Below are positions 2,051 through 3,961 of a DNA stretch of 10,447 bases, in pieces. This DNA comes from a virus. The first letter of the stretch is position 1; each line of letters starts with the position of its first letter. The stretch lies in IMG/VR virus record IMGVR_UViG_3300032516_006146, positions 1 to 10,447 of that record. The stretch is one strand, 5' to 3'. Under the pieces are notes generated by a model. The model had not been told where the DNA came from. It was given only the letters and a program-made list of their open reading frames with translations, and searched no databases. Made by a program: the position numbers and the translations under genes.

Positions 2051-2256
2051 GATTTTCTCCTTTTTATTGATTTTTCGAATTTTTGCCAGTTTATTATTAC
2101 AACTTCCTTGACCTGTTCATAATCTTCTATAAACTTGGTTATATTCATCAATTCAGGATAATCTGTTATTGGCTTTTCACGAACCACTACTGTATTACCG
2201 AATCTAATTGATCCGGATTTATTAAATTTATATGCTACAAAATATGATATTTTCAT
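2047..2256 (-). CDS. Hypothetical protein, 69 aa
   Basis: Makes ATGA overlaps with the genes on both sides. No family recognised. Confidence 0.4.
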   Translation of the reverse strand: MKISYFVAYKFNKSGSIRFGNTVVVREKPITDYPELMNITKFIEDYEQVKEVVIINWQKFEKSIKRRKS

Positions 2257-3212
2257 ACACTAATTCTTTCTTTTAATATTTCTGTTATCTTATCTTTATT
2301 ATAATAAGGAATTCTTATTAACTTAATTTTATATTTTTTGCAATATTTTGATTTTTTATGATCATTATTTTTCATGTTGTTATAATTATGACCAACATAG
2401 TGTTTTAAAAATGATTCATTAAAGTGTTGTGGTCCATCAAATTCTATACATATATTATAATCTGGTAGATAAAAATCAAAACGAAGTAAACCACCACCAA
2501 CACCAATTAATCCTGGGAAAGTTTTTTCTTTAATAAATATTATATTATTAATAATTAAATATTGTTTAATTAATCTTTTTCCATATGATTCATTACAAAC
2601 AGGACAACCACATTTAGTTGATAAATGAGTATTTGGTCTTTGTAAAAATTCTCCATGTTTTTTGCATATTATTATAATTTTATGTTTACTACTTTTATAA
2701 TTTACTTTACTATAATCATATTTGTTGCCATGAACTTTTTTAGCAAGTTCTATAAATTGCTTTGTAATATATGTATACAACATTTTATATTTAATAGACT
2801 TTTTAATTATTGAATTTAATGATTTAATTTTGCCACATTGTGGACAACCATGATTATATAAATGACAATTTGGTGTCTGTAAGAATTCGCCATGTTCTGA
2901 ACATATGATAATGATTTTTTTATATTCACCACAATATTCTATTTTTGAATAATCATATTTGTTGCCATGAATTAATCTGGCCTTTTCTATAAACCAAACA
3001 TTATTATGTAAATGTTTATTTTGGTTTTTAATTATTCCACATTTTGGGCATCCATGATTTCTTAAATGTATGTGTGGATCTTGTTTAAATTCTCCATGTA
3101 TTGAGCATATAATGATAATTTTTGTTTTTATATTCTTATATTCTATTTTTGAATAATCATATTTGTTGCCATGAATTAATCTGGCCTTTTCTATAAAATC
3201 AATTACATTCAT
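2253..3212 (-). CDS. Free-standing homing-endonuclease-like protein: three tandem ~75-aa zinc-ribbon repeats plus a C-terminal PD-(D/E)XK / DUF559 (Vsr-like) nuclease domain
   Basis: Three repeats of the pattern KA-L/V-HGNKYDYSK-I/V-xY...KIIIIC-x-HGEFxQxPxxHLxxxGCPxCG. The C-terminal LLRFDFYLPDYNICIEFDGPQHF matches the (R)xDFxLPxxxxxIExDGxQH signature of DUF559/Vsr-like nucleases. The gene is extremely AT-rich, roughly 10-15% GC in places. Its start makes an ATGA overlap with the glycosyltransferase stop. Confidence 0.55.
   Translation of the reverse strand: MNVIDFIEKARLIHGNKYDYSKIEYKNIKTKIIIICSIHGEFKQDPHIHLRNHGCPKCGIIKNQNKHLHNNVWFIEKARLIHGNKYDYSKIEYCGEYKKIIIICSEHGEFLQTPNCHLYNHGCPQCGKIKSLNSIIKKSIKYKMLYTYITKQFIELAKKVHGNKYDYSKVNYKSSKHKIIIICKKHGEFLQRPNTHLSTKCGCPVCNESYGKRLIKQYLIINNIIFIKEKTFPGLIGVGGGLLRFDFYLPDYNICIEFDGPQHFNESFLKHYVGHNYNNMKNNDHKKSKYCKKYKIKLIRIPYYNKDKITEILKERISV
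2937..2993. repeat. 57-bp perfect direct repeat, copy 1, inside the homing-endonuclease gene
   Basis: ttctatttttgaataatcatatttgttgccatgaattaatctggccttttctataaa is identical to 3141..3197. A third, diverged copy lies around 2708..2756 and shares aatcatatttgttgccatgaa. Confidence 0.9.
3141..3197. repeat. 57-bp perfect direct repeat, copy 2 (204 bp = 68 codons from copy 1)
   Basis: Identical in sequence to 2937..2993. It corresponds to repeat units 1 and 2 of the protein. Confidence 0.9.
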
Positions 3213-3961
3213 ACATTTATCTCTATAATATTTTTATTATCTTTGATAAATTGTTTATTAGTTAATGGAAATTTATATTTTTTATATTTATTTATAAATT
3301 TATCTCTGTTTGCATGCCACACCTTATCATGTTGTATGTTTCCCATAGATCGATGCTGAACCAATATGTCGGCGCATGCTACTTTATATCCTTTTTCTAA
3401 TACCTGCAAGCAAGTATCAAGATCATAAAAATGATATCCTTCATATGTTTTGTCATCAAATGATAGCTGATCTTCATTAAGAAACAAACTTCCTCTAATG
3501 AAAAAACATAGACCATCAACAGCAACTAAATCATCAAAAAATCCTACCGGTCCTTTAACAAGATGTCTTGCCCCACCTTCAGGATTTTCCTGAATTACAT
3601 GTCCTCTTAATTTGTCTGGGCTTGCATGCCACCAACCACCGGTATCCATAAGCATTGATGTACCGGCAACACCAAGCATACCAACATCTGGTTTAGATGC
3701 AAACAATAATAATGCTTTATCAGCAAATGAAGGATCGAGCAATTTTACATCTTCATGTATAAAAGCTATGACATCATCATGTTTCAATCCATCTTTAATA
3801 CATTGATTGATTCCTGCATTATATTTCAAAAATAATGATTCTTCAATGTCTGGTTTGGTGTTCGATACGAAGCAACAAGTAGCATTAAATTTTTGTAAAT
3901 AAGGATACAAATAATCATGTAATCTTTTATCATCCTTAACTGCTATAACGTAGAATATCAT
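3209..3961 (-). CDS. Putative glycosyltransferase (GT-A-like fold)
   Basis: A DxD-like IAFIHEDVKLLD motif. The C-terminal YHFYDLDTCLQVLEKGYKV resembles the GT2-type [W/Y]GxEDxDLxxRxxxxG motif. A GGWW segment is also present. Family assignment is tentative. AAGGGA Shine-Dalgarno site 5 nt upstream. Confidence 0.35.
   Translation of the reverse strand: MIFYVIAVKDDKRLHDYLYPYLQKFNATCCFVSNTKPDIEESLFLKYNAGINQCIKDGLKHDDVIAFIHEDVKLLDPSFADKALLLFASKPDVGMLGVAGTSMLMDTGGWWHASPDKLRGHVIQENPEGGARHLVKGPVGFFDDLVAVDGLCFFIRGSLFLNEDQLSFDDKTYEGYHFYDLDTCLQVLEKGYKVACADILVQHRSMGNIQHDKVWHANRDKFINKYKKYKFPLTNKQFIKDNKNIIEINV
3289..3296 (-). promoter_or_regulatory. T4-type late promoter consensus TATAAATA, 77 bp upstream of the homing-endonuclease start and inside the 3' end of the glycosyltransferase gene
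   Basis: Plus-strand tatttata reads TATAAATA on the minus strand. My manual scan of the window was not exhaustive, but this was the only exact octamer I found for minus-strand transcription. Confidence 0.3.

Follow-up and report, generated by a model that had tools for sequence, protein, structure and literature searches.

The complete open reading frame at 2253..3212 on the minus strand of the window, by which we mean the whole 10,447-nt stretch of DNA analyzed here, is likely a free-standing homing-endonuclease-type selfish gene, which joins an array of zinc modules to a Vsr-fold nuclease of predicted activity. Its carrier, a phage that is uncultured, has replication genes of T4-like type. 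In the ORF list the gene comprises 319 amino acids plus a stop codon, and the protein begins with three CapR/DUF723/DUF4379-like Zn modules and ends in an EDxHD/Vsr-like nuclease domain; its AF2 model has a pLDDT of 90.8. A protein database search returned at least 8,000 homologues, and 831 GenBank phage records match the endonuclease family. The PHROG matches are phrog_559 (6e-63), phrog_681 (4e-36) and phrog_9084 (1e-25), which are labelled as endonuclease or homing endonuclease families; the name ‘HNH endonuclease’ of phrog_559 is an annotation label only.

The initial annotation described three tandem HGNKYDYSK...HGEF...GCPxC modules, which a module HMM recovers at residues 5–61 (97 bits), 73–130 and 150–209. 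Module 1 (aa 1–66; 3015..3212, minus strand) carries the putative Zn ligands C36/H39/C55/C58 and is predicted in the AF2 model to fold as a helix, a β-hairpin and a knuckle. Module 2 (aa 69–134; 2811..3008, minus strand) has its putative ligands, C104/H107/C123/C126, at invariant alignment columns, and module 3 (aa 148–214; 2571..2771, minus strand) has them at C183/H186/C203/C206, which leaves all 12 putative Zn ligands of the protein intact. A linker ahead of module 3 (aa 130–145) is disordered in the AF2 model (pLDDT <50). The motif shared by the three modules is F-I-x-K-A-x-x-x-H-G-N-K-Y-D-Y-S-K...I-I-I-C-x-x-H-G-E-F-x-Q-x-P-x-x-H-L...G-C-P-x-C. At the DNA level, a repeat search detects a 171-nt unit in three copies (2586–2756, 2823–2993 and 3027–3197) with identities of 65, 100 and 78%, respectively. 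Module 3 is also matched by Pfam DUF4379, the ‘probable treble-clef zinc finger’ (residues 165–208; 27 bits, cut-off 24.5), and the precomputed annotation of an identical protein lists DUF723 and DUF4379.

Module conservation was assessed from an alignment of 686 modules taken from the best 120 of the at least 8,000 homologues. The putative Zn ligand columns (C34, H37, C53 and C56) are 98–99% conserved, and a scaffold of F4, I5, H12, Y16, D17, Y18, S19, Y23, I32, G38, F40, Q42, P44, H47 and G52 is conserved to a similar degree. Entropy peaks of about 2.9 bits or more fall at columns 10, 22, 24, 26–27, 41, 43, 45–46, 49, 51 and 57–58. The three modules of the protein differ from each other at these high-entropy columns of the family, which argues against the earlier proposal that the array recognizes a repetitive DNA target. 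Most proteins among the best 120 homologues, a ranking that favours proteins with many modules, carry 5–6 modules (range 3–8) followed by a 100–135-aa tail. Judged from these sequences, module number is variable in the family, and the three modules found here are a low count and nothing special.

Modules 1 and 2 share a perfect repeat. The duplicate was initially given as 57 bp; the exact match extends to 60 nt, with copy 1, FIEKARLIHGNKYDYSKIEY, at codons 6–25 of module 1 (3138..3197, minus strand) and copy 2 in module 2 (2934..2993, minus strand). Over 198 nt the two modules are 72.7% identical in a mosaic pattern: mismatches number 0/60 inside the repeat and 54/138 outside it (61% identity; Fisher p = 1e-10). 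The patch spans scaffold columns 4–23 only, and the hypervariable columns lie outside. A recent whole-module duplication is implausible because near-identity would be expected to be uniform, and selection at the protein level is an insufficient cause because the identity extends to synonymous sites. The pattern thus identifies the repeat as a short gene-conversion tract, or a product of unequal recombination, between old, diverged modules. The initial annotation had left recent module duplication and gene conversion side by side; of the two, the gene-conversion reading holds, and the duplication is contradicted by the 61% identity outside the patch. Recombination over short tracts between repeats is documented for repeat-containing phage homing endonuclease genes (HEGs) (PMC10448857). 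As origins of the repeat, we attach next to no weight to mis-assembly or to a very recent duplication of the entire module. The sequence is metagenome-assembled and tandem repeats are prone to mis-assembly; however, an artefact is unlikely because the 60-bp repeat is shorter than the final k-mer of the assembler (read from the contig name, k141) and an identical protein is present on two contigs, with 1 base different in 10,447 between the window and the ENA contig L001. The reading frame and every scaffold residue are also intact across the repeat region, and 10 synonymous differences outside the patch, at residues identical in both modules, rule out that the whole module was duplicated recently.

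The C-terminal domain (aa 207–319; 2256..2594, minus strand) carries the conserved residues D246, E257, D259, G260, H263, D284 and K287. Among 28 aligned homologue tails, D246, E257, G260, H263 and D284 are invariant and Q262 and K287 are near-invariant; position 259 is Asp in this protein and in most of the tails, and its column also contains Gln, His and Asn. A profile of the tails matches the catalytic domain of I-Bth0305I (PDB code: 3r3p) over the full domain with an E value of 0.015, followed by AbaSI (0.12) and the DUF559 protein 3hrl (0.17). The conserved tail residues align with D196(A), E-x-N208 and D222 of 3r3p, with an approximate register between H263 and H213. GenBank phage records label relatives of the tail as ‘VSR homing endonuclease’, ‘group I intron protein’ or ‘homing endonuclease’. 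A Vsr-like nuclease fold, as proposed initially, is confirmed at the level of profile and predicted fold. The DUF559/Vsr assignment made initially is upheld for the fold and fails for the Pfam match itself: the protein lies below the gathering thresholds of both DUF559 (PF04480) and Vsr (PF03852), and sub-threshold DUF559 matches occur in 12 of the 28 tails. No Pfam match to a GIY-YIG or HNH catalytic motif was found in the protein, whose catalytic domain has the Vsr fold, nor was one found to a NUMOD or HTH motif, its N-terminus being occupied by the Zn modules.

We consider it very improbable that the gene encodes an ordinary, non-mobile Vsr/DUF559 repair enzyme or restriction endonuclease in which low GC and repeats are incidental. 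Vsr is devoid of N-terminal Zn-module arrays, no methyltransferase is adjacent to the gene, and members of the family are overwhelmingly carried by phages, occur in multiple copies and vary in their number of modules; the locus is, in addition, polymorphic for the presence of the gene (see below).

The tails joined to such arrays are not uniform across the family. Some homologues have the same Zn-module array with a classical Vsr-type motif tail (YEFHGDYWHGNP), and at least one has it with a GIY-YIG/T5orf172-like tail (YIFYDEKYNLMKIGIS). These alternative tails indicate, at the sequence level, domain shuffling between HEG families.

The gene is fitted tightly between its neighbours. Its ATG overlaps the stop codon of the upstream glycosyltransferase (GT) gene, as originally noted and as read directly from the sequence (ATGA at 3209–3212, 4 nt), and its stop codon overlaps in the same manner with the start of a 69-aa ORF that lies downstream (o69; 2047..2256, minus strand; ATGA at 2253–2256, 4 nt). 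The octamer TGTATGAA is found at both junctions (3208..3215 upstream and 2252..2259 downstream, both minus strand), and the two copies bracket the ORF as a direct repeat with a period of 956 bp. Removal of one copy together with the intervening DNA would recreate an overlap between the GT stop and the next ATG, as in a related locus (L004). This arrangement hints at an insertion that was seamless and ORF-precise, but with 4 of the 8 bases forced by the ATGA arrangement, and we infer that the TGTATGAA copies would mark the insertion boundary. The ORF has a GC content of 22.5% compared with 36.1% for the remaining window; the figure of about 10–15% given initially was too low, and its direction, well below the surroundings, was right. 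Rfam detects only a tRNA in the window, so the gene is free-standing with no sign of an intron, and the ORF abuts both neighbours through the 4-nt overlaps. For o69, a word-based search of a collection of 5.8 billion proteins returned only the ORF itself, and Pfam, PHROG and PADLOC gave no match.

The window matches a 12.6-kb ENA metagenome contig (L001), which carries a dUTPase, a clamp-loader-type AAA+ protein, a dNMP kinase, a tRNA-Met and an 815-aa major-vault-protein (MVP)-like ORF. Ten related loci (L002–L010 and L047) were recovered with the GT as anchor; their GT and clamp loader are 34–56% and 38–50% identical to those of the window, and the gene order o227, clamp loader, GT and, further on, o140 is kept. 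A gene found in every relative at this position would speak against mobility, and these ten distant relatives contain no homologue of the 319-aa ORF at the GT-o140 locus. The GT-o140 interval (window 2047..3212; L002:6573-8032; L003:8741-8981; L004:3521-3773; L007:551-599; L010:3276-4978; L047:5786-6311) ranges in the relatives from 48 bp without a gene to 1.7 kb with five unrelated ORFs, and the junction is a cargo hotspot of genome plasticity. The contig with the closest GT relative (P0122, 69%) has called genes of 250-65-51-139-74 aa, with a 4-nt overlap between the GT and the next gene, compared with 250-[319]-69-50-140-70 aa in the window; from gene lengths only, it looks like an empty site.

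A second copy of the gene lies 9 kb away. This paralogue, truncated by the contig end to 278 aa, is located at 1..837 of L001 on the plus strand, beyond window position 10447, and is 56% identical in amino acids and 71% in nucleotides; it has a GC content of 25.9%, at least three Zn modules and the same Vsr-like tail. At least two copies of the endonuclease are thus present within the 12.6 kb of L001. Because the gene is absent from the locus in the retrieved relatives and has a paralogue on L001, it is probably an accessory, mobile and free-standing element as judged from sequence comparison; the locus is polymorphic for presence and absence, as a mobile element would be, among relatives that are distant.

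The same locus bears on whether the gene still homes. It may have been domesticated or have decayed, serving the phage by marker exclusion of competing phages, by degrading DNA of the host or of satellites or by CapR-like transcriptional repression, or persisting as an inert passenger, a reading that we regard as unlikely. CapR itself is a domesticated single-module relative that acts as a repressor (PMC8096241), HEG domains have been recruited in phage-satellite conflicts (PMC10448857), and the close ATGA coupling to the host operon is in keeping with an integrated gene. PADLOC also reports a weak match to the candidate defence family PDC-S69 (E 4.9e-5, 21 bits; residues 184–317, 2256..2660, minus strand), along with one to HEAT_CxxC_PD-DEXK over the same residues (E 0.006). 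The PDC-S69 match, however, is far from convincing and covers the generic nuclease domain only, and both matches probably reflect a generic Zn knuckle and nuclease core. Decay is opposed by the intact state of all catalytic-type residues and of the 12 Zn ligands, and absence in relatives combined with a diverged paralogue nearby is what active HEG expansion looks like. A homing-type selfish gene is hence the reading that we retain.

Expression of the gene had been attributed to a late promoter of its own. The exact T4-type late-promoter octamer TATAAATA does occur only once in the window, on the coding strand of the endonuclease about 77 nt upstream of its ATG (3289..3296, minus strand), inside the GT coding sequence, and is a candidate promoter only. 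One copy is at chance level: 1.68 ± 1.29 are expected, at least one copy appears in 166 of 200 shuffles, and the zero-order expectation for the AT-rich segment 2253–3330 alone is 1.08. Four GT codons, TTT-ATA-AAT-AAA (F-I-N-K), make up the octamer; they belong to a C-terminal stretch that GT homologues conserve, so the octamer is host sequence rather than insert-borne. The same octamer is present at the 3´ end of the GT in L002, which is without the endonuclease, in V-I-N-K codons. The claim of an own promoter is thereby withdrawn, although the octamer at 3289–3296 may still function as a promoter. Over the ten related loci, 19 copies are observed against 20.3 expected, with no over-representation. 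The copies in these loci, L002, L003, L010 and L047 among them, are biased 16:3 towards the coding strand, and they often stand 13–60 nt upstream of ORF starts (L002 7106/8408/9044, L003 1706, L010 3706). Judged from sequence, T4-type late promoters may exist in this phage lineage. A sigma-70 promoter scan gave background level. Co-transcription and translational coupling with the host operon are likely because of the ATGA overlaps on both sides, and a promoter-less cassette coupled translationally into that operon is most likely, being the most economical reading.

Upstream of the GT, the 815-aa MVP-like ORF (4046..6493, minus strand) matches Pfam Vault_3, MVP_shoulder and SPFH/Band_7. Among GenBank phages it matches only the uncultured huge phages LR756500/1/3, with genomes of 460–735 kb (43–46% amino acid identity over 99% of the length); phage MVPs have also been reported from the human gut (preprint 10.1101/2023.11.10.566534). 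A tRNA-Met with anticodon CAT (6708..6780, minus strand; ARAGORN and Rfam, 59.7 bits) is located in the intergenic region immediately upstream of the MVP-like gene. In L003, L004, L005 and L009 the GT directly follows the clamp loader, which makes the o97-o93-tRNA-Met-MVP block specific to the lineage.

The mechanism that we infer covers how the modules bind DNA, where and how the enzyme cuts, how the gene homes and how it is expressed. Each of the three independently folded, ~60-aa Cys-His-Cys-Cys modules would use two hypervariable patches (module columns 24–28 and 41–51) to contact its own short stretch of DNA, different from those of the others, and the three would jointly place the enzyme on a target that is long and asymmetric. 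The C-terminal ~110 aa would act as a Mg2+-dependent EDxHD-type nuclease (D246, E257, D259, H263 and D284) and, by analogy with I-Bth0305I and Hef, cleave the homologous region in gene-less relatives during co-infection. Repair by recombination, with the endonuclease-carrying genome as template, would then copy the gene with flanking markers into the GT/o69 junction, where the host operon transcript and translational coupling would express it.

For the window, the gene is one further selfish phage endonuclease gene, and it marks the GT-o140 junction as a plasticity hotspot. The family as a whole is very large, with its at least 8,000 members mostly annotated as ‘hypothetical’ or mislabelled ‘HNH’; it appears to have no biochemically characterized member with this architecture, and its repeat module is without a solved structural relative. 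The wider potential of the Zn repeat lies in its apparent modularity, a property of the whole family rather than of this locus: the modules could be usable as programmable DNA-binding units if recognition by the array proves modular.

The architecture itself is not new and was published in 2023–2025 (PMC12350094, PMC10448857). An HEG outgroup with three to five CapR/DUF4379/DUF723-like domains of ~60 aa and an EDxHD/Vsr-like nuclease of ~100 aa was described in 2025 (PMC12350094). It is likened here by description: it has the same domain architecture, is phage-borne and has thousands of unannotated relatives. The present protein has three such domains (DUF4379, 27 bits) and a C-terminal EDxHD/Vsr-related domain of the size described for that outgroup. 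The published examples are intron-encoded, whereas the present gene is a free-standing one that shares an ATGA overlap with the ORF on either side.

A paper of 2011 defined the EDxHD family together with its Vsr fold (PMC3239194). The prototype, I-Bth0305I (PDB code: 3R3P), shares with our protein the Vsr-like fold and the conserved E, D, H and D residues; it differs in being encoded in a recA group I intron, in having two NUMOD2/HTH-like motifs and in lacking Zn modules, and the identity is only 17%. Because the NUMOD2/HTH motifs are absent, our protein belongs to the outgroup and not to the core EDxHD members. The Hef free-standing endonucleases of T4-related phages were also assigned to the Vsr-like/EDxHD family (Taylor et al., 2011, PMC3239194). 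Likened by description, Hef-like endonucleases (Sandegren et al., 2005; LIMEstone1 F-LimIII, VII, VIII and X) are also free-standing, intergenic and polymorphic for presence and absence.

Repeated CapR/DUF723/DUF4397 Zn-finger DNA-binding domains are known from T5orf172 HEGs (Barth et al., 2023, PMC10448857), which have the same ‘beads on a string’ Zn array, nucleotide similarity between the repeats and in-frame recombination changes. Their catalytic domain is GIY-YIG, in contrast to the Vsr-like domain found here, and domain shuffling among HEGs is described in the same work. The ligand pattern of CapR, known from PLE, is CxxC...CxC and differs from the C-x2-H...C-x2-C of the present modules. 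T4 seg (GIY-YIG) and mob (HNH) genes have the same lifestyle, being intergenic between conserved genes, low in GC and often promoter-less on host transcripts, but their catalytic folds and DNA-binding domains are unrelated, and the gene is not a member of either group. Because NUMOD/HTH motifs are lacking and the Pfam DUF559 and Vsr thresholds are not reached, we file the gene with the CapR-like-repeat outgroup, of which it is, by its predicted domain composition, a new free-standing member rather than a DUF559 protein.
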